Of a stretch of 64,000 bases of DNA, positions 19,959 through 51,099 are shown piece after piece. The stretch lies in the NCBI GenBank assembly GCA_000165345.1, contig CM000430.1:576001-640000 (forward strand). Reading direction: 5' to 3'. Numbering within the stretch: the first letter of the stretch is position 1; every line of letters begins with the position of its first letter. The translations under genes and the position numbers were made by a program. The notes beneath the pieces were generated by a model. The model saw only the letters and a program-made list of their open reading frames with translations, made no database searches and was not told the DNA's origin.

Positions 19959-20293
19959 CGGTATTCTGAATTTCCTTTTGAATTCAGTAGCTTGCTCTTA
20001 CATAAAGTCTTGATTTGACAAAAAAGGAGAAATAAAAAGCCATTCTGCTTGTAATATAAAAACTATAAAATTTTGGCTATACAAGGTATTATTTTTATAT
20101 TCTCCTACTGAACCATTTTGAGATAGCTGGGAGAAAACTTTAATTTTTAGGAGTATATAAATTTAAATTTAATAATAAATATTTCCAATTTAAATCATAT
20201 ATATGCCAAGTATTAGCCTATATTTTAATAGGCTGAAATATTGAAGTTTGAAGCAAAATTCTTATAACATTTAATTATTAATACTAATTCATC

Positions 20294-32455: not shown

Positions 32456-35400
32456 TCAGTGCATCAAAGAAATACACAGTGGGCATGTAGTTTTGTTTGA
32501 CGTTCTGAACCATTTGTAAATACACTCAGAGTGGAAAATATTGTTACATGTATGGCATCTTTTTCTCGGCAATGACCTGTATTGGGGATGCACAATTGAA
32601 TAGCAGATAAGGCAGTCTTCCACGCCATCCAAGTATAAGGATAAATTATTTATCCACGTTAGAATGGCGTGAGTGACATTTTTGTACCTAACAGCTTTAA
32701 TGACAGAAATGAGCCAGTTAGAATTTTGTTTCTTAGACACTCCAACAACACTTGGGATATTCACTTTCGGAATAACTAATGGATGATGTTGGGAGAAAGT
32801 AAAAGAGAGCGTCGCAGTGAATCCACGCTCAGAATAGCTCATTTTAATTGCCCTAGATGATACATTATGATCAAATGTGATTTTCCTATCTGGGTTTGAC
32901 ATTTTCTCAATAATTAGAGGGATATGATTGAGTTCTATTGGGATAATGATAGGCGAAAAGTAGTTAATTACCAATTTTTGTAGAATAGCTTGAGTTTTAT
33001 TATTAGAATTGCGCAACCATATTTCGCGTAGTATTCTTGGGAAATATGTAGTTAGAGAGAGAATTATCCTAGTGGCCAGAAGCCATGTAAAATATAGGTT
33101 GCTTGAGTCCCATACCATTGATTCTGAATTTGAGTTTGGGTCCAACTGAAGGATCTCCTCGAGGTTAGCAGTAAGTAATTTGCGTCTTTCATTGTTTGAA
33201 GAATGTTTGAATAATGCCAGCCAGTTTGTTTGAGAATTAATCATTTTGTTAGAGTATGATTCTATGGAATTACCTGTTTCTTCGACTCTGATGTGATCCT
33301 CCAAAATTACCAGTGTTTGAAAAGCAAGCTCAACCAAAACATGAATTAAGGACAGTTTAATGGTTTTTTGCGTGATTTCTAGAACATCAGAGGCATCTAA
33401 AATATCCACCAAGCCGGAAAACGTTGTATTTTTTAAAACTATCTCATCTTGAATTAATTCTGAGCTTTTTCTTCCTTTAACAAAGAATTGCAATGCCTGG
33501 CAAATAGAAACATCTTCGTCTTCTAGATACGAAGGAAGGAAGTCGCTATTGACCTCAGATTTAAGATTCACTTGTTTTTCTCTGACCGCTTCTCCTATTA
33601 CTATTGGGTTTAACTCTAATAATGATTCAATACAAGGGGTTAAGTTCTTCTCTATAGTTTTAATGTTTGGGTTTTCTTTATCAGTGCAAATAACAAAATC
33701 CTCGGAAATCAATTTTGGTAAAATGAAATTCCAGCATCCTAATCTTTGCGAAGCATCTATGTATATTGAATTCAAAAAGCTTAAGCTTCCAGAAATTTCT
33801 GTTGAAGGATCATCTTTTTTTTCAAAATAAGACACGTTAATTGCGCTAAAGTATGTTTCCAATAGCTGTTGAGCTAAAGAAGGTCCAATCAGTCTTCTCC
33901 AGTGAGAAGCTATTACTTCTATCCCTCTTTCAAAGTTTTCTGAGTCAGAATCTAAAATTAATGGTTTTCTTTCAGGATTATTAAGGCATTCAGAGGTATT
34001 CGTTTCATGATTTATATTTGCATGTAAAGTTTCATATTTATCTTCTTGTTCATCCTGGTCTTGATCTTCAATTTCATCAAAATCGCTATCTTTATTCTTA
34101 GATATTAAATATTCCCTTATGCAGTGATCAAGCTTCTCTATACTAGATATGGCACTGTTTAAATCAGAGTATTCATATTGTACGTTATGCCAATTATGCT
34201 CTTTTAATATTAATAATACAAGCGAGTGAAGCTTTAATGAGTTTGTGGTTAATAATTTTGAAATTTCCATAGCATTTCCCTTAATGTTACCTAATTTTGA
34301 CTCAAGAACGGCCAAAATCCACATTTTCCCAGTATCTTCTGAATTCTTTAATATTACCATTTGTTCAATAAATATTCTCAATCCTGTATCAACTGTAAAA
34401 TTGTTTTTAGACATTAATACAGTTGAGAGCAGCCCCAAAAATTTGTCGAAAGTGCTCAAAACATTTGTCTCTAGCTGAATTGTAACACTTGTAAATCTAT
34501 GTTCATCTGGTATTGTTTCTCCTTCTGGATATAATTTGAGTCTTTGATAAATACTGCAGGAAAGTTTAATAGTATTTAGTACCAGATATTGAATAGTAAT
34601 TGAATACTCATTCAACTTTTTGGCTGTTTTTGTGTTATTATATATTTCTGAAGTCGAAATTTCAAAGAATTTCCCAACTAAATAATGAATAGATGAAGAA
34701 AGTCTAATCATTAATTTAGAAATTTCTAAATTACCATACTGAAATTCAAGCTCAATATTATCTTGAATATCTTTTCCTTGAATGTAATTTGTCAAATATT
34801 CTTCGAACAATTCAATTAGGACTGCCATTAGATTGCATAGTCCAAATAAATTGTACATATTTAGTGAGTTAGTATTGCCTAAATTACTCAATTCCTCTGC
34901 TAAAGCTTCTATAAGTGTCATTATTATATCTATATCAGATTCTATTTTGTATTCTGGAAGACCCTCATCAATAATAATAGCTTTAGCACAATGTATTAAG
35001 CGAGTTATTTTCATATAATTCTTCTCTTTGAATTCTGACAAATTTTTCATTTCAATATTGAATTCATCTAAAATTCTCTTTGATAATTCAGAGTATGCTT
35101 CTGGTAATTCTATGCCTCGCTGTTTAATCTTGATTAATGACAAAAATAAAGAAATTGAGTTGCTCTCAAATATATTAGAATATAAATAGTCAATAATTAT
35201 TGAAAGATATTCATTTTTCATCCTCTCATTGTCACTCATTAGTTCAAATAAATAAACATAGAAATCACTTGCTAAAGTCATAATGAATCTTGATTCTGGT
35301 TTACTATATTCTCCGAGAATGAATTGTGCAGTATTACTAATTTGTTGAAAATCAGGCAAATGATGTATTTGTTCAGATACCAAGTATTGCGAAAATTGTA

Positions 35401-38400
35401 AAATTAAAGAACTAATCTCCTCACTTTCAGAAATGAATTCACTAATGTTGAATAACGTTAAAAACAATTCTTTATCTAGGCTTATCTCTTTTGAACATGA
35501 AAGCAGCTTAATAGATTCTTCAGAAATAAAGAGATGCTTTACTGTGTAGATTATTAGCCAATAGCTAATCTTTGGATCTTTAATGTTATCAAAGTTATTC
35601 AAATTTAATTCTGAAGTGGAAAAATCAGCTACTTCCTTAAATACTCTTAAGAATCTTCGAATTTTAAAACCCGTTTCAAATACATCTTTTTGTAAGCACA
35701 CACTTTGATTAGTTATTGAACTGTTTAAACAAGCCAAAATTCTCACAAGTCTTTTGAACAAAATTTCATTTTCAGAACTCTCCTTATAGCAGGTGTTTGA
35801 TGCTTCTATGCCTTTGTTTGAACTCCTGTCAATTAAAAGAGTTAGTTTAAAAATAGATATAACTTTATTATCGCGAATCTCATCACCAATACTAAATACC
35901 TCAAAAAGAAGAATCTTTTCCAGCCTTGAAATTTCGGCTCTGAATCTTGAATTAATCAAATTGTGGCTTTTTGAAAAAATAGAATCAATAAAAGGGATCA
36001 AAATATTTCTAGATTTTGGATTCTCAAACCAAAAATCATTATCTGAGTATATTAGTATAGATAAAAGCTCATTAACAAAATCCTCAGAAATAATACTGTC
36101 ACTATTGATTAAATTAATTAATAAAACTCCAATCTGTGACGCTTCTTTTATATTTGAATTTGAGATTAATTTGTTTGTAAGAGTTGACTTGAGCTCCATT
36201 ATAACTAGGTTCATTAAAAAATCTGAAAAGGAATTTGATTGATTAACAAGTGAGGTTTTACTCAATTCCACAAACAAATGAATGTAGCACTCCTTGAAAT
36301 CTAATCTGTAGGAATTCTCACCATTTATGTTGCTTTCTTTATTCTTTCTAATCGCTTTGTCAGTCTTGATATTGTGTTTTTGAGAAAAAGAGAATATCTT
36401 GTAAATTCTATCTAATATGTTTGCATTAACCTGGGGGAACACTTTGCATACTGCTTCCAAAAAAAGTTGTGATAAAGATGTCTCTTTTTCTGTTAGCTGC
36501 TTATATAAGAAAGATTCTATCGTGATGGATGTTAAAGAGTCTGTATTACCAATAATAATGGAAATCATTTTTTCTAGAACAGATCTTTCGTTAAGTTCCT
36601 TTTGAGAAAGAGCTAAAATAAAAGGCGTGAATATATTTTCCAAAATTTGGTATATAATATTAACTCTTTTAAAATTAGTTTCAAGTTGCTCTTTCGAAAG
36701 TATTTCTATCAAATCCGTAAACATATTTAAAAATAAACTAATAACTTGCTGGGAATTTTCTGTTTCTTTGCCATCAATTGGCTTAACGACTACTTCTGTA
36801 ACAGCTTTATTAATCAGCTTTGATCTTGTAGTAATAGTTTCACATTCGCAATCAACATTATTTCTATCCAGAAGATTAATATGTAAAAAGGTTTCATGTG
36901 ATGTTTCTTCAAGCCAGAGCAAAACATGATCAATAAATTCTGAGTCATGTTTATTGAGAATTGCACATAATTCCAAGAATATGATGATTCTGTAGGAGTT
37001 TTGGTTTGTTAATGATCCAGATCTAAGTGTTTGGTCTTTATTTGTTTGATTCATATAGAATCTAGTCCAATAACCAGTTAAAAAGTCATTTAAATTAGAG
37101 ATACAATGATTAAGGTTCCTTTCCCTACACTGTTCTACTGACCAGCTGTGATATTGTAAGGAATCTATCATCATGTTTGAAAATTGTTCATTGATTTTAA
37201 ATTGAGCTTTGGAGTGGATTGATGAATTAGTAGAACTTGAAGCAGTTTTGTTAGTTGTAAGAATGAAAATTACTGGACTCCAAATGATCTTTGCGTAGTA
37301 GTTAATTAGAAATTCTTTAAGTTTAAATTGGTTTTCGTCAATTTTAATAAACTTTTTGTGTAAGAAATGCAACAAAATTGTGTAATAACTTTCTAGTGAG
37401 CAGTTTAATAAGACAGTATTTGGAGTTCCTATAGATATTACAATGGAACCACTTTCAGGGTTTGAGGTAAACTTGACCAAATGTAAAACAATACCAAGAG
37501 GGATCAGGCAAAGTAAAGGTAAGCTATTATTTTGAATGCTTTCATATAAGAATGCCATGAGCTCATTAAATGTCTTAAAATAAAAATCTGGTTTATTTAT
37601 AATTTCATTTATTAGATATATTTCATTATTAAGATTTGAGAACTCATCTAATAGAACCTGAAATGGGATGTTTGATATTATATATGGCAATTCAGAAAAC
37701 AATGAGCGACCACTTATTTGATTAGGGTTACTTAGACACATCAATAAAGTTTTTGTAAAGTATTTAATCGGAGAACCAAATAACTTATTAGGGCCTTGAT
37801 TCCAAATTTCTGGAAATAATTTTGAAAAAGCGGAAATAAGATTTGGAGAAACAGCTTGAACATTGGAATTAGATGTGTCACTTAGGCACTTGAGAGCATC
37901 AGTGAAGAGTTTAGAGATGGGGGGAGTATGATTTGATAAATTATTAATATTCTCGGGATAACTCAGTTTAAGTTGATTTAGGATGATAGTCATTGAATAT
38001 GTCAAAAGCTGAATGGCATCTACCCTGATAATGCTACTGTAATTACCTGTGATAAACTTCCACAGGGTGCCCATTTGCAAGGTATTCCAAGAAAAACTAG
38101 CTTTTGATTTTTCAAGAATTTGGCTTACCACTGGAGGGAGTGAATTGAAAATTAGATGAGATGCGATTTGAAAGGAAATCAAAGAAGACGACTCGCTTTG
38201 CATAGCTTCCATAACTTTTCTAACAGATGTAATAGAAATAGATATGATTCGGTCAAATAGCTCTTCCTCTTCTGATTGTGATGAAACATTTGCATTTAAT
38301 TCACCTTTAATATTCTTTAAATTACAGCTTAGCAACCTTCCGTATAAATCAAACATTGATATTAAACAGAAATTTATTATTTTAACCATTTTTTCTGGCC

Positions 38401-38944
38401 TGTCTTTCCCAATTAGTGCCTCCAAGAAGTCTGAAGCAGATTTTGATACATCTGGCTTGAGATCATTGCAAGAAAGCCAAAGAGCAGGAAAAAAAAGTTT
38501 GCAAAACTTCTCTAATCTCTTCCCACCAACAATTTTGTGTAGAAGAGACAAGCATTCATTTGAAAGCCTTCTTATTTTTACATCTGAATCATACACACCA
38601 ACCCTGATATATATATAAGTATAGTTAGAAAGAACAGGCTCCCAAACTATTTCTTGATCAGGGGTTTCGAGAAGATGAGAAAGTTGCTCTTTAAATGCTA
38701 CCAGTCCTTTCATTCTAGTCAAAACATCTTTCTTAGACATATTGGTAAAAATTGGGACGAAGGAAGAGTGAAGGGAAGATATGGTTAGTTGTTCTTTGGT
38801 ATGAAGTGCATCGGGGTCGCCTAATGGAACGTTAAACTCGGAAAAAATTCCCCATAAAGATGTTGCAACTCCTACCCGGCCCTCGCCTAGCAGAGATATA
38901 GCTTTTGAGCTATTAATTGAACTTTTAAATTTCTCTTTTGCCAT
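32456..38944 (-). CDS. LTN1: E3 ubiquitin ligase listerin (LTN1/RKR1), ribosome quality control
   Basis: 2162 aa. C-terminal RING-H2 CLICYSIVHPQYRSLPRKRCHTCNNIFHSECIYKWFRTSNKTTCPLCISLMH matches the listerin terminus (CAICYSVIH...CRTCKKKFHSACLYKWF.SSNKSTCPLC). Very long HEAT-like helical body and conserved N-terminal region. Confidence 0.8.
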   Translation of the reverse strand: MAKEKFKSSINSSKAISLLGEGRVGVATSLWGIFSEFNVPLGDPDALHTKEQLTISSLHSSFVPIFTNMSKKDVLTRMKGLVAFKEQLSHLLETPDQEIVWEPVLSNYTYIYIRVGVYDSDVKIRRLSNECLSLLHKIVGGKRLEKFCKLFFPALWLSCNDLKPDVSKSASDFLEALIGKDRPEKMVKIINFCLISMFDLYGRLLSCNLKNIKGELNANVSSQSEEEELFDRIISISITSVRKVMEAMQSESSSLISFQIASHLIFNSLPPVVSQILEKSKASFSWNTLQMGTLWKFITGNYSSIIRVDAIQLLTYSMTIILNQLKLSYPENINNLSNHTPPISKLFTDALKCLSDTSNSNVQAVSPNLISAFSKLFPEIWNQGPNKLFGSPIKYFTKTLLMCLSNPNQISGRSLFSELPYIISNIPFQVLLDEFSNLNNEIYLINEIINKPDFYFKTFNELMAFLYESIQNNSLPLLCLIPLGIVLHLVKFTSNPESGSIVISIGTPNTVLLNCSLESYYTILLHFLHKKFIKIDENQFKLKEFLINYYAKIIWSPVIFILTTNKTASSSTNSSIHSKAQFKINEQFSNMMIDSLQYHSWSVEQCRERNLNHCISNLNDFLTGYWTRFYMNQTNKDQTLRSGSLTNQNSYRIIIFLELCAILNKHDSEFIDHVLLWLEETSHETFLHINLLDRNNVDCECETITTRSKLINKAVTEVVVKPIDGKETENSQQVISLFLNMFTDLIEILSKEQLETNFKRVNIIYQILENIFTPFILALSQKELNERSVLEKMISIIIGNTDSLTSITIESFLYKQLTEKETSLSQLFLEAVCKVFPQVNANILDRIYKIFSFSQKHNIKTDKAIRKNKESNINGENSYRLDFKECYIHLFVELSKTSLVNQSNSFSDFLMNLVIMELKSTLTNKLISNSNIKEASQIGVLLINLINSDSIISEDFVNELLSILIYSDNDFWFENPKSRNILIPFIDSIFSKSHNLINSRFRAEISRLEKILLFEVFSIGDEIRDNKVISIFKLTLLIDRSSNKGIEASNTCYKESSENEILFKRLVRILACLNSSITNQSVCLQKDVFETGFKIRRFLRVFKEVADFSTSELNLNNFDNIKDPKISYWLIIYTVKHLFISEESIKLLSCSKEISLDKELFLTLFNISEFISESEEISSLILQFSQYLVSEQIHHLPDFQQISNTAQFILGEYSKPESRFIMTLASDFYVYLFELMSDNERMKNEYLSIIIDYLYSNIFESNSISLFLSLIKIKQRGIELPEAYSELSKRILDEFNIEMKNLSEFKEKNYMKITRLIHCAKAIIIDEGLPEYKIESDIDIIMTLIEALAEELSNLGNTNSLNMYNLFGLCNLMAVLIELFEEYLTNYIQGKDIQDNIELEFQYGNLEISKLMIRLSSSIHYLVGKFFEISTSEIYNNTKTAKKLNEYSITIQYLVLNTIKLSCSIYQRLKLYPEGETIPDEHRFTSVTIQLETNVLSTFDKFLGLLSTVLMSKNNFTVDTGLRIFIEQMVILKNSEDTGKMWILAVLESKLGNIKGNAMEISKLLTTNSLKLHSLVLLILKEHNWHNVQYEYSDLNSAISSIEKLDHCIREYLISKNKDSDFDEIEDQDQDEQEDKYETLHANINHETNTSECLNNPERKPLILDSDSENFERGIEVIASHWRRLIGPSLAQQLLETYFSAINVSYFEKKDDPSTEISGSLSFLNSIYIDASQRLGCWNFILPKLISEDFVICTDKENPNIKTIEKNLTPCIESLLELNPIVIGEAVREKQVNLKSEVNSDFLPSYLEDEDVSICQALQFFVKGRKSSELIQDEIVLKNTTFSGLVDILDASDVLEITQKTIKLSLIHVLVELAFQTLVILEDHIRVEETGNSIESYSNKMINSQTNWLALFKHSSNNERRKLLTANLEEILQLDPNSNSESMVWDSSNLYFTWLLATRIILSLTTYFPRILREIWLRNSNNKTQAILQKLVINYFSPIIIPIELNHIPLIIEKMSNPDRKITFDHNVSSRAIKMSYSERGFTATLSFTFSQHHPLVIPKVNIPSVVGVSKKQNSNWLISVIKAVRYKNVTHAILTWINNLSLYLDGVEDCLICYSIVHPQYRSLPRKRCHTCNNIFHSECIYKWFRTSNKTTCPLCISLMH

Positions 38945-38984: not shown

Positions 38985-38993
38985 GGCGGCGCC
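38985..38993. promoter_or_regulatory. GGCGGCGCC box immediately upstream of listerin start
   Basis: AATAGGCGGCGCCAAGG lies about 40 bp from the minus-strand ATG at 38944. Confidence 0.35.
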
Positions 38994-39176: not shown

Positions 39177-39195
39177 GGCGCCTATCTATGGCGCC
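39177..39195. promoter_or_regulatory. paired GGCGCC boxes (GGCGCC-N7-GGCGCC) in the listerin/PP5 divergent promoter
   Basis: TATAGGCGCCTATCTATGGCGCCTATATAGG lies between divergent start codons 38944(-) and 39324(+). GGCGCC is the E2F-like word described in apicomplexan upstream regions. Confidence 0.5.
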
Positions 39196-39323
39196 TATAT
39201 AGGACGAGTTTGTCCAACTGTGACGGAATTGGGGCGTAAGAACAATTACAGAAAAGTTTGGCATTTCTTGCCAGTAAATACAAGCTGCAAATAATAATTA
39301 ACTAAAGAAGAGAAGCAGGAAAG

Positions 39324-40901
39324 ATGTCTGATGAGAACACAAATTCCGTGAATGAATCAGTTTCTGAGCAATACAAAATCAAGGGAAATGAGTCTTTTAA
39401 ATCTGGCAAATATAACGAAGCTATTGAATATTATACATTGGCTATAAAAACCTCACAAGCTTCAAATGAAACCCAAAATAAAAACTTGCATATCTACTAT
39501 TCTAACAGAGCATTGTGTCACATTAGGCTGGAGAACTTTGGCTCAGCAATTGAGGATTCTGGGGAAAGTATCAAATGTTGCCCGAGTTTTTCAAAGGCAT
39601 ATTATAGAAGAGGTATTGCATATTTCAACTTGCTTAAATATTCCCTTGCAAGAAAAGATTTTATGATGGTTTTAAATTTAACTCAGAATGACAGAGATGC
39701 TCAATCAAAGATTCAAATTTGTACCAAATTAATCAAACAAGAAAAGTTTATGGATGCAATTTCAACTGATAGATCAAAATTGATACATGAGACTATAGAT
39801 TTCAGTGCGCCTGGTTTCGTGGTTTCTAATGATTATTCAGGGCCTCACTATAAACCTTTGGCGGATCATTCAAAATTTTCCCAATCAGGCAACGAAACTA
39901 ATTTGAAATCTAGAGAATTTGTTATACCTAAAGTGCCAGATGCTTCTCTTATTAGAGAGTCATTTGTTACTGAGCTAATTGACTTTTTAAAGAATCCAGA
40001 AAATAGGTTGCATAGAAAATACGCATATATGATTGTTTATGATTTAATACAAGTACTTAAAGAGGTTGCTTCTAAGCCACTAGTCAGAATTAATATTGGT
40101 AAACAGGAACATATTACTGTATGTGGAGATATCCATGGCCAGTTCTTTGATCTTTTGAATATTTTTGATATTAATGGTTTACCTTCTGTAAACAACGGGT
40201 ATTTGTTTAATGGAGATTTCGTAGATAGAGGGTCATTTTCTGTTGAAGTAATTCTTGTGCTTTTTACTTTAAAGATTATGTATCCATATCATGTACACTT
40301 GGCTAGAGGTAACCATGAAACAAAGAATTTGAACAAGTTGTATGGTTTTGAGGGAGAAGTCTTAGCAAAATATGACTCAGGTCTTTATGATTTGATTAGT
40401 GAAGCATTTTGTTTCCTTCCTTTGGCGCATGTTATTAATGATAAAGTTTTCGTAGTGCATGGAGGTCTTTGTTCAGAAGATAATGTAAAACTTAGTGACA
40501 TTGAACAGCTTTATTCTAGATGTGAGCCAGCTGATTCCGGATTTATGTCTTCATTACTTTGGTCTGATCCACAACAAAAGGAAGGAAGGTCTCCTTCTCC
40601 TAGAGGAGTGGGATGTAATTTTGGACCAGATGTAACGCTCAATTTTCTTAAAACTAATAACTTGGACTACATCATTAGAAGCCATGAAGTTAAACAAGAA
40701 GGTTATAGCGTTGATCATGATGGAAAATGTATTACAGTCTTTTCTGCACCAAATTATTGTGACTCTATGGGTAACAAAGGTGCATTTATAAAAATACACG
40801 AATACGACCTTAAACCTAACTTTGTTCAGTTCTATGCTGTTCCACACCCACCAGTTCCAGCAATGAAATATGCAAATTCTATGCTTTCATATGGAATGTA
40901 A
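39324..40901 (+). CDS. PP5: serine/threonine protein phosphatase 5 (TPR + PPP catalytic domain)
   Basis: N-terminal TPR repeats (AIEYYTLAIK, KAYYRRGIAYFNLLKYSLARKDFMMVL). PPP catalytic motifs GDIHGQFFDL, GDFVDRG, LARGNHE, HGG, RSHE. 525 aa. Confidence 0.85.
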   Translation: MSDENTNSVNESVSEQYKIKGNESFKSGKYNEAIEYYTLAIKTSQASNETQNKNLHIYYSNRALCHIRLENFGSAIEDSGESIKCCPSFSKAYYRRGIAYFNLLKYSLARKDFMMVLNLTQNDRDAQSKIQICTKLIKQEKFMDAISTDRSKLIHETIDFSAPGFVVSNDYSGPHYKPLADHSKFSQSGNETNLKSREFVIPKVPDASLIRESFVTELIDFLKNPENRLHRKYAYMIVYDLIQVLKEVASKPLVRINIGKQEHITVCGDIHGQFFDLLNIFDINGLPSVNNGYLFNGDFVDRGSFSVEVILVLFTLKIMYPYHVHLARGNHETKNLNKLYGFEGEVLAKYDSGLYDLISEAFCFLPLAHVINDKVFVVHGGLCSEDNVKLSDIEQLYSRCEPADSGFMSSLLWSDPQQKEGRSPSPRGVGCNFGPDVTLNFLKTNNLDYIIRSHEVKQEGYSVDHDGKCITVFSAPNYCDSMGNKGAFIKIHEYDLKPNFVQFYAVPHPPVPAMKYANSMLSYGM

Positions 40902-41075
40902 TCTATAATCTAACATAAATCTTAGAAGTCCTTTAATATGTCTTGGCTTAAGCTAGACTATATAAAATTAAAAACAATAATTAGAGTAGATTCCTAATTA
41001 AAAAATGAAAGAATGGTTTGTTAATATAATAATGCTTAATTATCTTTAGCCAATGAAAATTGCAATTCAACTATA

Positions 41076-41665
41076 CTACTGAATGGAATCATCTATAGGC
41101 CCCAAAAAGTCACTGTTCATCTCTGCCACGGCTGACAAAGTTTCATTGTTGACTCCCCTTAGCCTAAGTCTAACTTGTGAATTTTGTTTGATTTGAATTT
41201 GAGTTTTTGTATCTATATATATTCTACTGCTCTGACCATCGATTCCGCTTTTGTAGACCATATTTTCGGGTAAAGCTGACTGGCTTACAAAAACTCTTTT
41301 TAGAGGACCACAATCTACGATAACTCCTAATTCATTTACACTCTCAACAACCCCATCTACAACTTCTCCCTTAATTGGACGATAAACAATAGCCTGATAT
41401 TTCACAGGCACAATTATAAGCCCTGTGCTATCTTGCACTCTACCAGGTTGTTTTAAGATGATCTTGATCACACAAACAACGTATCCATAAGGAGGTGCTC
41501 GTTGTCCCTCGACCTGAGATTAAGTAATTATTCAAATCTAAAGTAACAATTTCATTTTAAACGTACCTGACTTCTTAAAATATCGTCTATATGCTCATTA
41601 TATCTCGGGCCAAGCTGGCTTGGCTTGACAGAAATATTTCTCCAAAGCTCCACAAAGAAAAACAT
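41076..41665 (-). CDS. RPB7: DNA-directed RNA polymerase II subunit RPB7 (2 exons)
   Basis: join(41076..41513,41567..41665). Exon 1 MFFFVELWRNISVKPSQLGPRYNEHIDDILRSQ. Donor GTACGT (plus acgtac at 41561-41566); acceptor ctcAG|GTCGAGG. Exon 2 VEGQRAPPYGYVVCV...KYQAIVYRPIKGEVVDGVV...DFLGPI parallels Rpb7 (MFFIKDLSLNI..., KYRAVVFKPFKGEVVDG, DYLGAI). The ORF track shows only the 3' exon. Confidence 0.75.
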
Positions 41666-41749
41666 TGTTTGAGATATCTCTCTTTAAAACCTGCCTTAAT
41701 CTCGATACCTCAGAATAATCTTTTTGCTCTGTAAATATTTAAAAGAAGG

Positions 41750-41771
41750 AGCGCCTGATTGTTGGCGCCAA
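41750..41771. promoter_or_regulatory. paired (A)GCGCC ... TTGGCGCCAA boxes, 8-nt spacer, RPB7/41850-gene divergent promoter
   Basis: GGAGCGCCTGATTGTTGGCGCCAATTG lies between starts 41665(-) and 41850(+). Nearly the same composite as at 49997-50016. Confidence 0.5.
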
Positions 41772-41849
41772 TTGTATTAATTTAATATTTAATAAGAATT
41801 ATTATGTAGCAAAATATTTTAAAAAGTATAAGACCAATAAGGGGCAAAG

Positions 41850-44800
41850 TTGATCATCAATATGGCTAAGGCTACTGCGCTTGAGCTCCTGGAATCTCTT
41901 TACAATGAGCTGATGAAAAAGGCAGAGGAAGGTGCCTACAGTGGGGAAGTCTTAGAGCAATATGCATGTAGTGTGCTTGCAAATTTGCATGCAAGCAAAG
42001 ACCCATTTGGTATTTACCATCAGGAATTGGCTTCTCAAGATGATCGAAAAAAAAGGCCAAACAATCCGCTTAGCCATGTAATACGTAGGCTGACAGAAGA
42101 AATCTTTGCGATCACAACAACTTGCAGCTATCCCATTTTGTTAACCCCGAGGCTCTATATAGTATGTGTATCATTATTAAGTGAATTATCTTTGGGAAAG
42201 CTTTCTCCTTTATTTTTAGAAACATTCGATGGCTATGCGGACAAATTTGAGAAGGATTTCAAACCATTAATGTTGGAAGTGTTTATCAGGAAGGCTCCAT
42301 GGCAGATACTAGTAAAAAATCTCAACTATCTGATAGGAAATGTAAAATCTGGAGTAGCTGGAGCCATGTGCGACAGTAAAATAAAGATAGAGTTTCAAGA
42401 GCTAAGCTCTATCACTAGCCCTGAGATGAGTAATTTAGGATTGTTAAATTTCCTGCCCCTATTTTTTACAAATTTCGAGTCTTTAAAAAAAGGAATATTA
42501 GAAGGCAGGTATTCGTTTAATTTCAACTCAAGTAAGGACAAAATTAAAGCAAATAGTAAAAGAACTTCAAGTTTGGTAGGCTTTAATACAATTATTGAAA
42601 AAACAAAAATAGTTGAGAGTTTTATTTCCAAAAAAAACGAAAAAACGACTCCAACTGAAATAATTAATCAAGCATTGGATAATTTTGCACTGACAAGAGT
42701 TAGCATTGCAGCTTTGACGAGAATTTTTACTAAATTCGGAATTGAGTCTGGTAGGAAAGAATTAAAAGAATTTAATTTAGATATTAGTTTTATTATTAAT
42801 TCATTTGAAGCAGTTATAGCAACTTTGCTTTCTGGTACCGAGATGTTTAGTTTGAATATGTGTGAAGGCAGTGACAAAGTATTCGAATCAAAGCATAAAG
42901 AAAACCCACAAGCAGTCTTACAACAAATATTTGAACTAGATGGAAGCATTTCAAATGATATCTTTACCTTGGAAAATAAGACAAATATATATTTCCCTTT
43001 CCATTTCCTTCATATTCAAATCGTTTCTGGGCTAAGAAATTTAATTATAAGCATGAGCAATTTTAAAGACTCAAATAAAGTAATACAAAATTCTTCAAGC
43101 TTAAATGATTTAATTATTGCCTATATTATGAGGATGTTAAATCAAATAGAAAGGATTCTCGAGTTACAAGGCTTAAATTCAACTAAACAAGATCATGAAA
43201 ATCCTTCATTTTCTAGTTCAGGAATTAATAGGTTTTTGGAGTTGATTCCTTCCGAAACTATTTTTTTAATTCAAGAAATGTCAAATTACTATTACCCATG
43301 TAGATCTATATTTAAAAAAAAGTTATTAGACATTCATGTCTCTCAGTTGAAAAACACTGAGCAAAGGGTTTCCTCATTTTTTATGACTTCTTTTACTCAA
43401 GTTATAAGTATGGAAGTTGGAAATGATTTAGATTGTGATTTACTGATGGAATCATGGGATCGTATCTTCAGGGATGTTGTGTTCCCAAATTTACTGGATT
43501 CATATACAATTGATTTATTTATAACTATGATTTGTAATCCCAACACTCTCAATAGCTTATCTAGAATTAATATTGAATCCTTTCTAGGTAAATATTTGGG
43601 AGTAATTACAAGGATTCTAGCTTATCATCCAGATTTATCAGCCAAACCAATTCTTGTATTTATTATGAATTGTGTTAAAAACTTAAAGATCCAAATGCCT
43701 AATTATGAATGGTTAGCTAATTGGATGAAGATTATTTTGAGTGCAATTTGTATGCCATTGATAACTCTCTTCCCACAGAAAGTTAATTGCGATGTTAATG
43801 ATCTCAAAGCAGTAATTAGCCCCATCAAGCCTAATAATAGAATCCTGAATTCCCTTTCAATTTTGGTTTACCCTAAGATATATTCCGATAATAGAAAAAA
43901 GGGAAAACTTGATTTAATGCATATTATTTCTGATCTCTCAACTAATCTTTTGTTGGTATCAATATATAACTCTAACTATACAGGAAACAAAAGATTACAC
44001 ACTATGACAGCTTTAAATGTTTGCATTAAGTTACTTGATTTGTTAATTAATGATTTAATTGACTCACTTGAAAGCCACAATAAACAAACAGGGAGTGATT
44101 ATTTACTTTCAGATGAGTCGATAATTAGTATAGAAAAGAAAAATATTGCCAAATTAATTTCTGGAATATTAAAGGTATTTCCTTATTTATTCCACCAAGG
44201 AGCAAACTATTCTCAAGAAATCTATGAAAAGATCGTAAAGCTTATTACTTTCATTTTTACTAGATTTAATGAATTATTATTCTCTGATGAGGTTTTCGAA
44301 GTCGTTTTAAATTTATTAAAACTGGATTTTCATTCTAACCTTGTAATAATTTCTCCAATTTGCTGGGCGATTGGAGAAGTTTTTATTTCAAAGATCGACG
44401 ATAATTCTCTTGAAGAACATGAAACAAAAATTTTCAAGCTAATTAATAGCTTAAAGTCTTTGATAGAAGGTTGTTGCACGAATTGCAATCAAGTAAACAA
44501 TGAATTAAACAAGAAAAACTGCAACTCTGGAACTGACACAGACTCGAATACTGGTTTAATGGATGAAGCTTTAAGTGAATGCTCAGATTCTTCATATTCT
44601 TCATTTATTTCTGACTCTTCTCTTGAAATTGATAGCGTTGCTTCAGAAGATGAACTTGAAGACGATACTATCGATAGTATTGTATATTCTAGTGGTGGAG
44701 CTACCGGCGAAGGAGGAAAAATGGCATTTATTGACCATTTTACAAATAATGAATATTATAATAACAAAATTTATAGAACAATGAGTGAAATTCTGAATGA

Positions 44801-45164
44801 AGATGATTTGAAGGATGTATACAAATATTTGGACAATATTTACCTAGTAGAAGCTATTATATCAACTTTATGCAAGATTGGATTAAGTTGTAAACAATCC
44901 AAATCAAATATAATTACTTTACTGGAGATATGTTTAAGAAAGTTCCAAATTAGGGGTTTTGAAAAGGATAACTTCGAAGACGAAAATTTAATTTTCCAGG
45001 AAGATCAACTTTTACAATATTCAAGATTCATCTTATCAAAGAAAATTAGTCTTTGTATTAAATCACTGAACCACTCATCTGTCTTTTCTTCTGCATTAAA
45101 CAAGCCAACAGGACCTCCAAGCACCTTATTTTGCAATAAAAGCTTAAGTTCAATATTGTTCTAG
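41850..45164 (+). CDS. hypothetical large alpha-helical protein
   Basis: 1104-aa uninterrupted ORF; compositional match to neighbours; acidic S/D/E-rich C-terminal segment. No domain recognised. Confidence 0.5.
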   Translation: MIINMAKATALELLESLYNELMKKAEEGAYSGEVLEQYACSVLANLHASKDPFGIYHQELASQDDRKKRPNNPLSHVIRRLTEEIFAITTTCSYPILLTPRLYIVCVSLLSELSLGKLSPLFLETFDGYADKFEKDFKPLMLEVFIRKAPWQILVKNLNYLIGNVKSGVAGAMCDSKIKIEFQELSSITSPEMSNLGLLNFLPLFFTNFESLKKGILEGRYSFNFNSSKDKIKANSKRTSSLVGFNTIIEKTKIVESFISKKNEKTTPTEIINQALDNFALTRVSIAALTRIFTKFGIESGRKELKEFNLDISFIINSFEAVIATLLSGTEMFSLNMCEGSDKVFESKHKENPQAVLQQIFELDGSISNDIFTLENKTNIYFPFHFLHIQIVSGLRNLIISMSNFKDSNKVIQNSSSLNDLIIAYIMRMLNQIERILELQGLNSTKQDHENPSFSSSGINRFLELIPSETIFLIQEMSNYYYPCRSIFKKKLLDIHVSQLKNTEQRVSSFFMTSFTQVISMEVGNDLDCDLLMESWDRIFRDVVFPNLLDSYTIDLFITMICNPNTLNSLSRINIESFLGKYLGVITRILAYHPDLSAKPILVFIMNCVKNLKIQMPNYEWLANWMKIILSAICMPLITLFPQKVNCDVNDLKAVISPIKPNNRILNSLSILVYPKIYSDNRKKGKLDLMHIISDLSTNLLLVSIYNSNYTGNKRLHTMTALNVCIKLLDLLINDLIDSLESHNKQTGSDYLLSDESIISIEKKNIAKLISGILKVFPYLFHQGANYSQEIYEKIVKLITFIFTRFNELLFSDEVFEVVLNLLKLDFHSNLVIISPICWAIGEVFISKIDDNSLEEHETKIFKLINSLKSLIEGCCTNCNQVNNELNKKNCNSGTDTDSNTGLMDEALSECSDSSYSSFISDSSLEIDSVASEDELEDDTIDSIVYSSGGATGEGGKMAFIDHFTNNEYYNNKIYRTMSEILNEDDLKDVYKYLDNIYLVEAIISTLCKIGLSCKQSKSNIITLLEICLRKFQIRGFEKDNFEDENLIFQEDQLLQYSRFILSKKISLCIKSLNHSSVFSSALNKPTGPPSTLFCNKSLSSILF

Positions 45165-45445
45165 TCTATACTCATAACTAGATGCACTAATTTATTATTT
45201 TAGTGCAAATTTCCCAACTACGGATTCATTTATGCATTTATTCATGAACTTGATTAAGGTTCACGCTAAAGGTTAGATAAACCCTCTAGTCAATAAATTA
45301 GAAGAAATCGCCGAAAAACCCTCACAAGAAAATTAGTTAAAATATTAATATTAAGACCAATATTACTATTGATATCTGCGAATTCTACCAGAGTTGGAAC
45401 CTTTCCTCCCTCTATTATCACCCTAAAATCATAAACTAAATCTCT

Positions 45446-46123
45446 TTAGGCAGAAGCTTTAGCTTTGGTAGCCTTCTTTCCAAAATTCTTAGCTTCAATA
45501 AATTGTTTGCGTAGTGTAGAGAATGCTCTGAATTTTCTCTCCTCAGGAGTAATAACGTGAGTCTATAAGAAAAAGTGATTAATTTAAATCTATAGAGTTA
45601 ATAACGACATACTTACCTTAACAGCCAAAGTCTGGGCCTTAATAGGGAAAGCCTTTTCATGGCTTACATTCTTCAAGGCCTTGAACTCCTCTCTAGCAGA
45701 GTCATTTGGAATACCAGCGAAGCCCTTCTTAGTCTTCTTTCCCTTTCTTGGTTGAAGAACGATTCCATTAATATACTTCTTTAGACGGTCAACATTGATT
45801 TGGAATGTCTCTTCAGATAAGTCAGTTCTTCTGTGGTCAACAGCAATTCCAATGCTCATTGCAGCCTTTTTGTTAATTCCACAAGCTGAGAGCTCTTCAA
45901 GAGTGAATCCTCTTCCAAGACGGGTTTTCATGTTGTAACGTTGTGTTGGTGGGTGGACAATTGGTCTCAACATTCCAACAGGTCTAAAGCCTGCCTCAGC
46001 AACTGCCTTTTGACGAGCAATTCTGCGGCTTTGCTTTCTACCTGGCTGGTTATACCATGTCTTGATCCAGCGTTTGTAGTTTTTGTGATAGTGCACATTG
46101 GGAATAACGTTGTTATGACGCAT
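45446..46123 (-). CDS. RPL13: 60S ribosomal protein L13e (2 exons)
   Basis: join(45446..45562,45617..46123). Exon 1 MRHNNVIPNVHYHKNYKRWIKTWYNQPGRKQSRRIARQKA...AQTLAVK. Donor GTAAGT (plus acttac at 45611-45616); acceptor cttatAG|ACT (plus ct at 45563-45564). Exon 2 THVITPEERKFRAFSTLRKQFIEAKNFGKKATKAKASA*. The ORF track ORF reads through the intron. Confidence 0.85.
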
Positions 46124-46515
46124 CTTTAATCAAGATTTAGGTTCTATTCTTCTATTATATGAATCTATATATATATAAATATATTCGTCCTTAGACTCCT
46201 TTCTATACTTCTTTCCAACTTAATACTAGAAGGAAAGTTGAATACCTTTTAAAAATAAAATATTTAAGCTTTCGAAAAGATGTCTCGATTACAAATTCAA
46301 AGCAGTCTTTATAGCCTTTATTTTCAAAATAATTGTTGGCTCTCTTTTTTTCTTAATATTTTATTATTTACTATAATAAATAATATTAAATACAAATTTA
46401 CTCTAATTTTATATTTAATTTATAGTTAATTTTCTTTCCTATTAATTTCTTATAAAAAAGTATTACGAGACAGAAATCAACAATGCCGGTATTTAATATA
46501 ATATTATTTGATTTG

Positions 46516-46592
46516 GGCCGCGTCTCGTCTCATACAAAAAAAAATTTATATTAATCAAAAAAGACGTGCATGGTTTAGGCGCCGTCTCAAGA
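46516..46592. promoter_or_regulatory. repeated CGTCTC / GGCGCC elements in the RPL13/RPS16 divergent ribosomal-protein promoter
   Basis: TTGGGCCGCGTCTCGTCTCAT (46513-46533) and TTTAGGCGCCGTCTCAAGAC (46574-46593) lie between RPL13 start 46123(-) and RPS16 start 46764(+). Confidence 0.4.
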
Positions 46593-46763
46593 CATCAATA
46601 TTAAAATATTAATTATTTAAATAAATAATAATTGGGGGAAGAAAAAATCGTAGTTAAATAGAATTAAGGAGGAAAAAATTGCATAAAAGAATAATCGACT
46701 TGGATTAAGTTGGTTTGTTTTAATTCTTGAATAATATTATTTTTCTGATTCTATATTTAGAGG

Positions 46764-47198
46764 ATGACTATGGAAAGCCGTATGGTTCAGACCTTTGGTC
46801 GCAAGAAGAATGCTGTTGCAGTAGCTCTTTGCAGAGAAGGAAAGGGATTAGTTCACTTTAACGGAAAGCCTTTGGATCTTATCCAACCAGAACAACTCAA
46901 GGTTAAGGCTTTTGAGCCAATTCTCTTATTAGGAAAGCAAATTTTTTCTGGAGTAGATATTAGGATCAGAGTGTCAGGTGGTGGTTACACATCTCAAGTC
47001 TTCGCAATCCGTCAGGCTTTAGCCAAGGCAATTGTTGCTTACACTCAGAAGTTTGTAGATGAAGCAACAAAACAAGAAATCAGAGATATCCTCGTTTCTT
47101 ATGACCGTTCATTGGTCATTGCTGATCCAAGAAGATGCGAGCCAAAGAAATTCGGAGGTCCAGGTGCCCGTGCTCGTATTCAGAAGTCGTACCGTTAA
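46764..47198 (+). CDS. RPS16: 40S ribosomal protein S16 (uS9)
   Basis: [14 protein letters not shown]...[22 protein letters not shown]...[25 protein letters not shown], with the canonical uS9 C-terminus. Confidence 0.85.
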
Positions 47199-47600
47199 TT
47201 TTAGTATGCTGGAGTTATTCAGGTTCGGGTGGGATCGGGAGTTCCTTCAAGAACTATTTGCAGGGACACCAAAATCAAGAAAAAAAATATGTCTCATTTC
47301 GGTTTGCTATGACTACATTACGAGGTTCTACTATGTATTTACTCTTATGTCGGCTATTTGCTACTAGAAGTGGGCTAATACTATTTACCTTTCAGATTAG
47401 TATATAAGTTCTTGTTCCTGGCCTTAATACTCATCGAATATTATCAGACTTTGAGACATTTGAGGGTTTACTCTTTACTTTATCCCAAGTATCTAATTAG
47501 TATATAAAAGGATATCGATTTTAATAGTTAAATTTATTAGGAGTCTATGTTTCTTTGCTTTGCCTCTTCCCATTCGCTGTACCTTAACGGTTTTCAGATG

Positions 47601-49862
47601 CTAGTTTACTACATCATGAAGTGAGTTTAAAAAGTCTTGGTGGGAGATTGTTGAAGAGTTCTTGAATTTGTGTTGGACTAGTTCAAGGGCAAATAGTAAT
47701 TTTTTGATAGGTACTGGGAACCTAAGAGAATCCGAGATTTTCGTTAAAGTATCAGGTGTGAACAATCCATTCTGATAGTAGTCTAAAATTCCTGGAACGT
47801 CCTGTGATTCAACTGAAGGAACTCTAATCGACAAGTTAAAAATATCAGCCAAACCAGAAGTATGAACAAATTCGTACTCAGAGGTAGTTGCAAGTATTAG
47901 AAGCTTTCTTCCTTTAGGTGCTCTGTTCTTAATTAAAATCATAATAGTCTGTAATACAATATTTGAAAATCTGGGGCCAATAGCAGTAAAGTCCATCAGT
48001 CTTTCAATATCATCCAGAATAATACATGATATATCGCTCTTATAAGCATCACTAAATGTTTTTCTCAGCTCTTGACTTCTTGCTGACTCGCTCATACCCA
48101 CAAATTGGAGGGGACTCTGCAATTTTGTAAATGGGAATCCTCCTGTAATTGCAATATGAGCAGCCAAGGCGGACTTTCCCGTTCCTTTATCTCCATATAA
48201 CAAAACAGCCAATGTAGAAAGATTCTCATCTGTTTTGATCTGTTCGGAAAGCCTCTTTAATAGCTCTAAGTTCCTTTGTGACTCACTACCCAACTTTATT
48301 ATTCCTCTAGGAACTAAACTTTGCAACTCATCTTCGTCAGTACCAAATGCAGGTTGCACCTCCTCTAATGCTGACTCAAAATCACTTCTGCAAACCTTAA
48401 TGTTCTCAGCATCCATTGGCTTAGTCATATCTCCCATGTCAATATGGCGTTGAAATGCAAAGGATGTTGCAGACCTTACCAGTCCTTCCAGCTCAGCACC
48501 TGAGAAGTTGGCAGATTCTTGTGCCAAAGCACTTAAATCTACATCATTTGCCAATCTGGAGCTTTCTCTCATTTGCTTAGTATGAATCTCAAGAATCTCC
48601 AATCTTCCCTCAGAGTCAGGCAGTCCTATTTCAATCTGAACCTCGAAGCGCCCAGGTCTTAAAAGGGCTTCATCCAAGAGATCCAACCTATTTGTCATGC
48701 CTATCAATAATATGTTGTTAATGCTATTAACTCCATCAATTTTGCTTAATAGCTGATTAACTACGCTGTCACCAACTCCTGTTGAACCACTTGATCCTGC
48801 TCCCCTACTTTTGCAAATGGCATCAAGCTCATCTAAAATAATAATATGTAGTGCAGAAAAGTCTCCTTTTTGACGATACTCATCTTCTGCCTCTTTAAAT
48901 AAGTTTCTAATGTTTTCCTCGCTTTGTCCAACATACTTATTTAAAATTTCAGGTCCATTCACAATTTTGGGCTCCCTAGCTTTGAGAACTTTTGCGATCT
49001 GTCTGGCTATTAAAGTCTTTCCTGTACCTGGAGGCCCATGTAAAATCAAGCCCTTAACATGTTGTATTCCCAACTCCTTTAGTAGCTTTGGTGGAATAAC
49101 TCTACTTGCAAAAGCTCTTCTGAAAATGACAGAAAATTCATCGTCTAGGCCACCAATACCAATGTCCTTAAAACTGAAATGATGTCTGAATAAGGTCGGA
49201 GCACTTCTGTGGTCATTCTGAAATCTAACTGTTCCTGTTTTAGATCCTGTTAATTCCATGTTTGTAGAGTCAATTACTAAAAAATGAGAATTTTTAGAAT
49301 CAGAGTGTTCTTTCTTATTGCCATTTGATAATAGGCTATCTAGAGATAAGATATCTTTTACTGTCAATAGTAACAATAAATTCTCTTCCTTATAGAAATA
49401 TGATACCTTTTGGCCTTGTGTAACTACTTGATTACGTATGCTTTGTAAAATACCTGGAATTATTCTTTCACCATCTAATAAAAGCTGTTGACTAGATCCG
49501 ACAAATAATTCTGCCTCAAGCAAAAGAGTTCCAGCAATGCTCTTTGCAGCTTCACTACCAGTAGTTCCAAATCCCACAGCTAATTCAACTTCTATTCTCT
49601 CCCTTGATTCAATCCTAGCAAATTGGCGATGCAATCTATTTAATGCTAATTCCCCATGAGCAACTCTTTCATCTACTTCAATATTCAAAACAAGATTTTT
49701 AACTAAAATTCGAGGTTGCCCAGTTCCACTTTGCGTGTTAGAAAGATTCTTTAAAGCTGTATATGTTGAAGAACTTACATATGCAAAGTTTGTGAATGCC
49801 AGCTCTTGTGCAGGCAAATTGCACGAAACTAAGGAAACCGTCATATCAAGTCCACTCCTCAA
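47601..49862 (-). CDS. NSF: N-ethylmaleimide-sensitive fusion protein (NSF, AAA+ ATPase, vesicle fusion)
   Basis: D1 Walker A GLILHGPPGTGKTLIARQIA with KIVNGPEILNKYVGQSEENIRNLF, ILDELDAI, and SRS. Second D2 P-loop LLYGDKGTGKSALAA. 753 aa. Confidence 0.85.
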   Translation of the reverse strand: MRSGLDMTVSLVSCNLPAQELAFTNFAYVSSSTYTALKNLSNTQSGTGQPRILVKNLVLNIEVDERVAHGELALNRLHRQFARIESRERIEVELAVGFGTTGSEAAKSIAGTLLLEAELFVGSSQQLLLDGERIIPGILQSIRNQVVTQGQKVSYFYKEENLLLLLTVKDILSLDSLLSNGNKKEHSDSKNSHFLVIDSTNMELTGSKTGTVRFQNDHRSAPTLFRHHFSFKDIGIGGLDDEFSVIFRRAFASRVIPPKLLKELGIQHVKGLILHGPPGTGKTLIARQIAKVLKAREPKIVNGPEILNKYVGQSEENIRNLFKEAEDEYRQKGDFSALHIIILDELDAICKSRGAGSSGSTGVGDSVVNQLLSKIDGVNSINNILLIGMTNRLDLLDEALLRPGRFEVQIEIGLPDSEGRLEILEIHTKQMRESSRLANDVDLSALAQESANFSGAELEGLVRSATSFAFQRHIDMGDMTKPMDAENIKVCRSDFESALEEVQPAFGTDEDELQSLVPRGIIKLGSESQRNLELLKRLSEQIKTDENLSTLAVLLYGDKGTGKSALAAHIAITGGFPFTKLQSPLQFVGMSESARSQELRKTFSDAYKSDISCIILDDIERLMDFTAIGPRFSNIVLQTIMILIKNRAPKGRKLLILATTSEYEFVHTSGLADIFNLSIRVPSVESQDVPGILDYYQNGLFTPDTLTKISDSLRFPVPIKKLLFALELVQHKFKNSSTISHQDFLNSLHDVVN

Positions 49863-49996
49863 GGAAAAATATAAATATTAGAAAATTTCAATGAGTTTTT
49901 TCTCTTTTTAAGTTAATCAAATTACTCCTTTTTAATTCTCGCTTGTCCTTCACCTTACCCACAACTATAGATTAAAAAATTGCAAAAAAAAGCGGA

Positions 49997-50016
49997 GGCG
50001 CCTGAGTCTTGGCGCC
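49997..50016. promoter_or_regulatory. paired GGCGCC boxes, 8-nt spacer, NSF/50110-gene divergent promoter
   Basis: GCGGAGGCGCCTGAGTCTTGGCGCCAAATTTC lies between starts 49862(-) and 50110(+). Confidence 0.5.
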
Positions 50017-50109: not shown

Positions 50110-50637
50110 ATGACAATATTTGAGGTGAAATTGTCTTCAGCAACAACTTTGCAGGATTTATTGGGGGAAAATGAATATGTTAAAGACAATTATAAGAACT
50201 GTGATATATTAGTATTAGATTATGAGGGAAAAGAAAAATTGGGTTTTTTAAACCGTGACATACTATTGACAGATTATAGACTAATTTTTCTTAAAGATGC
50301 TGAATATTCAACTCAGAATTCAAAAATTCCCAGCAAATTCTCTTGTGGGGACTACATAAATATTTCATCTATTATTGTTAACGCAGTTTCATCGTGTGAA
50401 AAAGCTGAAGATAATCCGTATTTATACGTTCAATTAGGTGATCCTGAATTTAATGAAGACAGTGATGAGGATTTGGAGTCTAGTCACCGCTTTTCCGAAA
50501 TTAACATTCGTTGCTCTGACCAAAATACTATCTATACGCTTTTCAATTCTATATCGGAAACAGCCGCATATATGGAGCAGCTAGAGAACTTATCTGATTT
50601 AAAATCGGATGATGAGTTAACAACTGATCAAGAATGA
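50110..50637 (+). CDS. hypothetical small acidic protein
   Basis: 175-aa ORF. Short promoter spacer from NSF carrying paired GGCGCC boxes. Acidic C-terminus. Fold not recognised. Confidence 0.4.
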   Translation: MTIFEVKLSSATTLQDLLGENEYVKDNYKNCDILVLDYEGKEKLGFLNRDILLTDYRLIFLKDAEYSTQNSKIPSKFSCGDYINISSIIVNAVSSCEKAEDNPYLYVQLGDPEFNEDSDEDLESSHRFSEINIRCSDQNTIYTLFNSISETAAYMEQLENLSDLKSDDELTTDQE

Positions 50638-51099
50638 CACTAATTTTTGGGTAAATCTTCTCATTTAGTTTTTCTAATAAACCTTTCTAAATTACTTTCA
50701 TTATTAATACAATTGATATCCAAAAAGTAGTATATTTTTATCACCTCATTTTTTGTATAACTTCATATTTAATTTTCTTTCTGATTTTTCAATGATTTAT
50801 TCTATTCAAATATATTTATTTACTCTTATAATATTGATTGCAAACTAATGGAAATGGCGCCATGATCTTCAAAGATAGTAATGCATGCGGAGTATCACAA
50901 AGACGAATATACTAAATTCCTATAAAACAACATAAAAGATTAATTTATAAAGTATTAATTAATCTTAAATAAGAATCTTAGTTTTAAAATTTATATTTTC
51001 AAGGGATAAAACAATATATCACAGTAAAGTTAATAACGATTGCCTAGATCTAGCAATTATCTGTAAAGCAGAAATTAAATTGATCGAATATTCACAAAG

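Follow-up and report, generated by a model that had tools for sequence, protein, structure and literature searches.

Why should a short G+C-rich box stand twice, 7 or 8 nucleotides (nt) apart, in several compact promoters of an A+T-rich genome? The question is raised by 64,000 nt of Cryptosporidium DNA, probably from C. parvum (contig CM000430.1 of assembly GCA_000165345.1, positions 576,001 to 640,000; hereafter the window, whose own numbering is used throughout), which has a G+C content of 0.324 and, judging from its open reading frames (ORFs) and the gene calls of the fetched loci, a compact gene map with short spacers. A preliminary description of this stretch had reported three composites of two GGCGCC-type boxes, and on re-reading the window all three sequences match at their coordinates (pairs A, B and C, Table 1), with start-to-start distances of 13, 14 and 14 base pairs (bp). 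We widened the box definition because the published Cryptosporidium E2F-like family includes GGCGGG and GGCGGC besides GGCGCC, and a fourth pair, absent from that description, surfaced with it; this pair D repeats a non-palindromic E2F variant in direct orientation and is flanked by two same-strand genes. The composite is real, non-random and recurrent in the window, and with a probability of roughly 0.6 we read it as two abutting E2F-type sites which would load two dimers and keep a shared promoter open.

The boxes themselves are far from randomly distributed. GGCGCC occurs nine times in the window against 1.25 copies expected, a count reached by none of 100 dinucleotide-preserving shuffles, and all nine copies fall outside ORFs, while the pattern GCGCC-N7/8-GGCGCC was not produced by any of the 100 shuffles. 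Among the 47 GCGC tetramers of the 64 kb, with (GC)n runs set aside, only those of pairs A-C lie less than 60 bp apart, and were such close-pair distances uniform on 6-60 bp, all three would fall into any one two-value bin with P=0.002. A placement null, in which the box count of each intergenic region is held fixed and positions are randomised within the region, gives P=6e-4 for exact boxes, 5e-5 when one end mismatch is allowed and <1e-5 under the broader E2F definition; with boxes restricted to a 60-bp core the values become 0.016 for exact boxes and 0.0015 with one end mismatch, all of these placement values being somewhat optimistic because the 13-14 bp bin was picked after seeing the data. 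All spacing statistics are at the level of the window, with about 78 kb of genome covered (the window and 13.6 kb adjoining it). Within this sample, 13-14 bp is the modal spacing class, preferred and not obligatory. As to their setting, the composites had each been placed in spacers of less than 300 bp between divergently transcribed genes, and pairs A-C do lie in bidirectional promoters, with the correction that the spacer between LTN1 and PP5 measures 379 bp; as a general rule the bidirectional setting fails, pair D lying between same-strand genes, and a tally in the window of the intergenic regions that hold pairs (3 of 10 divergent versus 1 of 12 same-direction) reveals no significant difference.

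Conservation of the pairs was followed in six other species, C. meleagridis, C. ubiquitum, C. felis, C. bovis, C. ryanae and C. andersoni, whose syntenic PP5 loci of 21 kb all have the same gene order and orientation. For the PP5 protein, the closest other clusters are C. meleagridis (97%), C. ubiquitum (95%) and those of the remaining four species; its sequence is exactly matched in CP029781.1, CM109962.1 and many Logan assemblies, and a WD40 protein of the window that evolves faster shares 95% identity with C. hominis. Within the window's own species, the pairs are identical in six isolates. Pair A reads GGCGCC-N7-GGCGCC in C. meleagridis and C. ubiquitum, GGCGCC-N7-GGCGCG in C. bovis, GGCGCT-N7-GGCGCC in C. 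ryanae and AACGCC-N7-GGCGCC in C. felis, so that N7 is found in six species including that of the window, with identities of 0.83 and 0.94 for the two boxes versus 0.30 for the spacer and with six spacers that all differ from one another. Pair B is AGCGCC-N8-GGCGCC in C. meleagridis and GGCGCG-N8-GGCGCC in C. ubiquitum, and has a gap of N7 in C. felis, C. bovis and C. ryanae; in the six-species alignment, where mean column identity is 54%, its two GCGC tetramers are the sole invariant blocks, and the perfect box changes side between lineages. Pair C is kept in C. meleagridis and C. ubiquitum, with AGCGCC as the second box, and C. felis retains the second box only. Pair D takes the form GGCGGG-N7-GGCGGT in C. 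meleagridis, C. ubiquitum and C. felis (L007 3106-3124, L008 3098-3116 and L009 3171-3189, respectively), the GGCGG core being retained in both boxes around four different spacer sequences in four species.

Taken over the four loci, with three to six species each, the spacer length is 7 or 8 in every one of 19 instances, and for pairs A-C mean pairwise box identity amounts to 0.81-1.0, with spacers at about 0.30, the level of unrelated A+T-rich DNA. The pair A promoter further provides an internal control, in which the interval that separates an ACATG motif from box 1 varies across species from 10 to 7 nt and the box-to-box gap stays constant at 7. At the level of sequence comparison, these alignments demonstrate that in the intestinal Cryptosporidium clade the two boxes and the length of the gap are under purifying selection, and the double site is real and probably functional. 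A longer common element is not part of the conserved arrangement: pairs B and C do share flanks in the window, as had been described (GGAG..GCGCCTGA..TTGGCGCCAA), and across species this likeness dissolves, the TT..AA of box 2 being altered already in C. meleagridis and the flanks being wholly different in C. ubiquitum and beyond, and we reject such an element as the feature marked by these flanks.

Several observations concern the immediate surroundings of the boxes. The 30 spacer positions of pairs A-D (39183-39189, 41756-41763, 50003-50010 and 32431-32437) diverge faster than the surrounding promoter DNA, with 20 of 30 identical to C. meleagridis versus 0.87 at the 4-fold sites of PP5 and NSF (P=0.003) and 7 of 30 identical to C. 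ubiquitum versus 0.66 at the same class of sites (P=2e-6), both being small-sample, post hoc comparisons; this possibly reflects a mutation hot spot between bound factors, or no constraint at all. TGACATG occurs at 39160-39166, 10 nt 5' of pair A, its ACATG part being invariant in six species, and the reverse complement CATGTCA occurs at 50023-50029, 6 nt 3' of pair C, with TGTCA invariant in four species; GGACGAGTTTGTCC at 39202-39215 comes after pair A in four species. Both TGACATG/CATGTCA and GGACGAGTTTGTCC may be partner motifs of the double site.

What could read these boxes is suggested by the literature on single copies. No upstream motif of C. parvum is more over-represented than an E2F-like box, which is associated with ribosomal, replication and glycolysis genes and published in the forms TGGCGCCA, [C/G]GCGC[G/C] and GGCGGG (PMC3734150), and an E2F-type motif dominates sporozoite open chromatin profiled by the assay for transposase-accessible chromatin with sequencing (ATAC-seq), where more than half of the peaks are annotated as bidirectional promoters (10.1101/2025.01.17.633476). 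For C. parvum, the literature lists two DP proteins and two or three of the E2F type (PMC3734150; 10.1101/2025.01.17.633476; a 2025 review). The description of GGCGCC as a known E2F-like apicomplexan motif is accurate for Cryptosporidium and too broad beyond it, reviews stating that E2F/DP are lacking in other apicomplexans and reporting Cryptosporidium as the only apicomplexan genus to retain them. Human E2F structures, together with systematic evolution of ligands by exponential enrichment (SELEX), show that GGCGCC is a target of E2F homodimers and TTGGCGGGAA one of E2F/DP; the two recognition helices of the dimer share a major groove, and minor-groove contacts extend over about four A/T bp per side (PMC4686757). 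All eight boxes of the four pairs fit the E2F/DP core (TTTSSCGC / GGCGCC / GGCGGG) at 5-6 of 6 positions. Box 2 of pairs B, C and D is flanked by TT...AA(A), a feature lacking from box 1 of every pair and from both boxes of pair A, and the spacers are about 70% A+T, which is the genome background. On motif similarity, E2F/DP proteins are the putative binders of the boxes.

In our proposal, each composite would place two E2F-type sites in tandem, one abutting the other, at the core of a compact promoter. The full site of one winged-helix dimer, E2F-E2F or E2F-DP, would be a single box, GGCGCC or GGCGGN; the dimer would read its 6 bp from one major groove and, from the minor groove, about four A/T bp per side. 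As such a full site spans about 14 bp, boxes 13-14 bp apart would be complete sites set end to end, at the closest packing that allows two dimers to be loaded side by side, and since this arrangement would explain the gap of 7-8 nt, no helical phasing needs to be assumed. The pair had been taken to span about one helical turn and to imply a dimeric factor; the centre-to-centre distance of 13-14 bp is instead about 1.3 turns, and as a single palindromic GGCGCC is already a dimer site (PMC4686757), two boxes imply two dimers. The likely benefit would be that the sites are occupied more fully or cooperatively and that the promoter of constitutively expressed genes stays stably open, often for both members of a divergent pair. 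We infer that both sites would be occupied simultaneously and that their close spacing would reflect dimer-dimer contact. In a more specific version, which we hold only tentatively and regard as improbable, intestinal Cryptosporidium would possess a dedicated architecture in which two E2F-type dimers at exactly 13-14 bp form a single cooperative unit and mark promoters that are constitutive and often bidirectional, with a protein-covered spacer that mutates at a higher rate than synonymous sites; the double site would then be a regulatory class distinct from single E2F boxes and absent from C. andersoni.

A number of findings weigh against the proposal of two abutting dimers. The additional 13.6 kb of the same chromosome contain no further pair at 13-14 bp; of the two pairs that they do hold, one is spaced by 17 bp and the other is inverted and overlapping. 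Spacing had been described as fixed, and for pairs A-D the gap is indeed always 7 or 8; a further pair upstream of RPS28 departs from this, its distance being unstable at 16 bp in the window and 17, 32 and 33 bp in the WD40-centred orthologous loci of C. ubiquitum, C. canis and C. ryanae (boxes at L016 11808-11857, L017 11794-11831 and L018 6019-6057, respectively), and two boxes can therefore work at other distances. Retention of a 7-8 bp gap in C. parvum, C. meleagridis and C. ubiquitum is expected without selection, indels being rare in so short a stretch, and the argument for constraint thus rests on the more distant species. C. andersoni, the only gastric species sampled, lacks the pairs and has single degenerate boxes (GCCGCC, AGCGCT) or none, so that not every member of the genus needs the pair for these genes; palindromic box use as such seems much lower in this gastric species, with one GGCGCC in its 21.6-kb locus (L012) versus eight in the orthologous C. 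meleagridis segment. Finally, the assignment to E2F/DP rests on motif similarity, and several boxes have flanks (ATA-GGCGCC-TAT, GGA-GGCGCC-TGA) that depart from the canonical TTT...AAA.

Part of this evidence would equally suit two independent sites, one for each divergent gene, that are close only through the shortness of the spacers and subject to neither cooperativity nor a spacing constraint. Three of the four pairs occupy divergent spacers of 196-379 bp, the RPS28 spacing changes freely across species, the distance in the RPB7 promoter toggles between 13 and 14, and indels within 7-8 bp are rare over short evolutionary distances. Pair D, however, lies outside any divergent promoter, LTN1 has a proximal box of its own in addition to pair A, and one box suffices for the divergent RPL13/RPS16 promoter in all seven species compared; moreover, three or four pairs at exactly 13-14 bp are improbable even within a 60-bp core (P=0.0015-0.016), and the gap of 7 is retained in C. 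bovis and C. ryanae despite changed distances between neighbouring blocks, leaving independent sites as a possible but unlikely explanation. Chance clustering of a very common promoter motif, for which the small sample of four pairs in about 78 kb and the post hoc definition of the bin speak, is contradicted by the shuffles and placement nulls and by the conservation of both boxes, versus a randomised spacer, in up to six species, and we consider it very unlikely.

The identity of the reader is a separate matter. The cross-species invariant is the GCGC tetramer, with outer positions that vary (A/G at position 1, C/G/T at position 6), box flanks are often non-canonical for E2F, and according to a 2025 review E2F function in Cryptosporidium is not validated, all of which would accommodate a factor or factor pair other than E2F/DP that reads a bipartite GCGC-N9/10-GCGC. 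Such a reader seems to us quite unlikely, as the same box is abundant singly with canonical TTGGCGCCAA flanks, pair D has GGCGG, without GCGC, which is the classic E2F/DP core (PMC4686757), AP2 domains on arrays gave no such motif, and no bipartite GCGC reader is known as a candidate in Cryptosporidium. It is also a property of GGCGCC-N7/8-GGCGCC that it is self-complementary by construction, so that the selected feature might be a 6-bp stem with a 7-8 nt loop, formed as a DNA cruciform or as an RNA hairpin in a 5' leader. Among 12 variant stem positions in 15 instances, 9 break the pairing, 2 are one-sided changes that still pair and 1 is compensated; pair D, as a direct repeat, is unable to pair (3-4 of 6 positions), and the lack of any Rfam family match in the window likewise counts against a hairpin or known RNA, a reading that we reject as scarcely credible. 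Two abutting E2F-type sites are our preferred reading.

Paired E2F sites have precedents elsewhere. In the adenovirus E2 early promoter, two E2F sites are bound cooperatively through E4 ORF6/7, and spacing and orientation matter for the two dimers; those sites are inverted, farther apart and bridged by a viral protein, unlike the Cryptosporidium pairs, and we know of nothing comparable to such bridged sites in Cryptosporidium. The cell cycle-dependent element/cell cycle genes homology region (CDE/CHR) composite of DREAM-regulated cell-cycle promoters also includes an E2F-like GC box in a fixed-spacing bipartite element. Its partner, however, is the CHR (TTTGAA) read by LIN54 and not a second E2F box, and here only the single box at 50856 has TTCAAA nearby. 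The mammalian p107/RBL1 promoter has two adjacent E2F sites which are conserved among related species, both functional and unequal in strength (Burkhart et al. 2010, PMC2891812), and similarly in most instances here one box is perfect and the other degenerate; p107, however, is a single cell-cycle gene under pocket-protein control, whereas the present pairs belong to several unrelated housekeeping promoters, in an organism said to lack most E2F partner proteins (PMC3734150). Within Cryptosporidium, the established E2F-like motif (Oberstaller et al. 2013, PMC3734150; Xiao et al. 2025, 10.1101/2025.01.17.633476) shares with our boxes the core, the upstream restriction, the association with ribosomal and housekeeping genes and the presumed E2F/DP binder, but it has been treated as a single motif, the ATAC-seq preprint stressing one motif per peak. 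We found no description of paired boxes with a 7-8 nt gap in the Cryptosporidium papers searched, namely the motif-discovery papers, the AP2 paper, the 2025 review and the ATAC-seq preprint. Two MEME consensus strings in Table S3 of Oberstaller et al. (PMC3734150), GCCAAATAATGGCGCC and GGCGCCACATAGGGGCAGG of clusters 68 and 157, resemble N7 pairs and are not discussed as such, a hint that the arrangement recurs elsewhere in the genome. Overall, the single motif and tandem E2F sites are already known and the 13-14 bp spacing class is apparently undescribed, which makes the composite a variation on a known motif and not a new type of element.

The general picture of E2F biology is unchanged by these results. 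Their interest lies in how few Cryptosporidium factors yield different outputs, for which a double site with a preferred distance of 13-14 bp would be a simple grammar rule that sets strong, constitutive and often two-gene promoters apart from single-box promoters. Furthermore, the pairs offer wild-type and mutant probes with which E2F/DP binding could first be assayed in the parasite, and could possibly aid the design of compact bidirectional promoters for transgenesis.

Table 1. Paired and single boxes of the window and the genes that adjoin the pairs (window coordinates; distances to start codons as ATG).
Feature	Position	Strand	Details
Pair A	39177..39195		GGCGCC-TATCTAT-GGCGCC (N7); LTN1 (listerin)/PP5 divergent promoter; PP5 ATG 128 bp downstream, LTN1 ATG at 232 bp
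Pair B	41750..41769		AGCGCC-TGATTGTT-GGCGCC (N8); 196-bp RPB7/hypothetical divergent promoter; 84 and 92 bp to the two ATGs
Pair C	49997..50016		GGCGCC-TGAGTCTT-GGCGCC (N8); 265-bp NSF/Voldacs divergent promoter; 152 and 93 bp to the two ATGs
Pair D	32425..32443		GGCGGT-N7-GGCGGC; 12 bp past LTN1 stop codon; KH-domain gene ATG 1.4 kb downstream
LTN1 (listerin) gene	32456..38944	-	Pfam Ltn1_1st, zf-RING_2
PP5 phosphatase gene	39324..40901	+	
RPB7 gene	41076..41665	-	one intron; L003 11753-12342; SHS2_Rpb7-N
1100-aa hypothetical protein gene	41862..45164	+	no Pfam family
NSF-type double AAA ATPase gene	47601..49844	-	
Voldacs-domain protein gene	50110..50637	+	
Overlapping single box	38985..38993		GGCGGCGCC; 41-49 bp 5' of LTN1 ATG, same spacer as pair A; kept with end changes in each of the five intestinal species
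RPL13/RPS16 divergent promoter core	46561..46593		33 bp; single GGCGCC at 46578-46583
RPS28 pair	16024..16045		GGCGCC-N10-GGCGGT; 196 bp 5' of RPS28 ATG
(GC)6 run and box	19940..19962		GGCGCGCGCGCGC then GGCGGT; divergent promoter, 179-aa ORF/1003-aa WD40 gene
Single GGCGCC	50856..50875	+	followed by ATGATCTTCAAAGA; 5' of 704-aa signal-peptide protein gene

Other boxes of the window illustrate what surrounds the pairs. The RPL13/RPS16 box is present in seven of seven species including C. andersoni, and no second box at 13-14 bp from it was found in any of the seven. Its core, AAGACGTGCATGGTTTAGGCGCCGTCTCAAGAC, is identical in C. meleagridis and has one or two changes in C. ubiquitum and C. felis, the GGCGCCGTCTC part being found in all seven species, and combines a TGCATG (AP2-type) motif with the single GGCGCC and short inverted repeats (GACG/CGTC, GTCT..AGAC). 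A 32-bp pair is also seen at 60368/60400, and the pairs at 32-33 bp may represent a second class, spaced by close to three helical turns, though this is unproven. At 19940-19962 the GGCGCGCGCGC(C) run that adjoins the GGCGG/CCGCC box is kept in C. ubiquitum and C. canis (L016 7861-7884 and L017 7867-7889). The box ascribed to SPT4 had been misplaced at 8955-8961, the CGCGCG in question lying at 8965-8970.

GGCGGG/CCCGCC, and not GGCGCC, is found at 6787, 7950, 14272, 57972, 58179, 60368 and 60400, upstream of several other genes including secretory ones, with CCCGCC mostly on the sense strand of the downstream gene. The preliminary description had assigned the boxes to housekeeping and proteostasis genes and not to the secretory cluster, which is correct for the palindromic form only and fails for GGCGGG/CCCGCC at the last four of these positions. 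That secretory part comprises three paralogues, 704-aa and 532-aa signal-peptide proteins and a TSP1/Kringle protein; the paralogues are three adjacent ORFs at 53335-56207 (172, 229 and 158 aa) with a common Cys-rich C-terminal domain (BLASTP E 1e-10 to 1e-16), for which no Pfam family was found.

The 1.4 kb at 31009-32455, which include pair D, are conserved above other spacers, at 95.8% to C. meleagridis and 84% to C. ubiquitum versus 89-93% and 65-81%, respectively. No ORF of at least 80 aa and no Rfam match was found in this segment. It may represent a non-coding RNA under the control of the double site at 32425, or the KH-domain gene may have a long 5' leader here.

Even the palindromic form has an exception within the secretory part, the GGCGCC at 50856, which precedes a signal-peptide protein gene. 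With TTCAAA following 6 nt on, it recalls the CDE/CHR composite of cell-cycle promoters, and the 20-mer GGCGCCATGATCTTCAAAGA at 50856-50875 is identical in the window, C. meleagridis, C. ubiquitum and C. felis.

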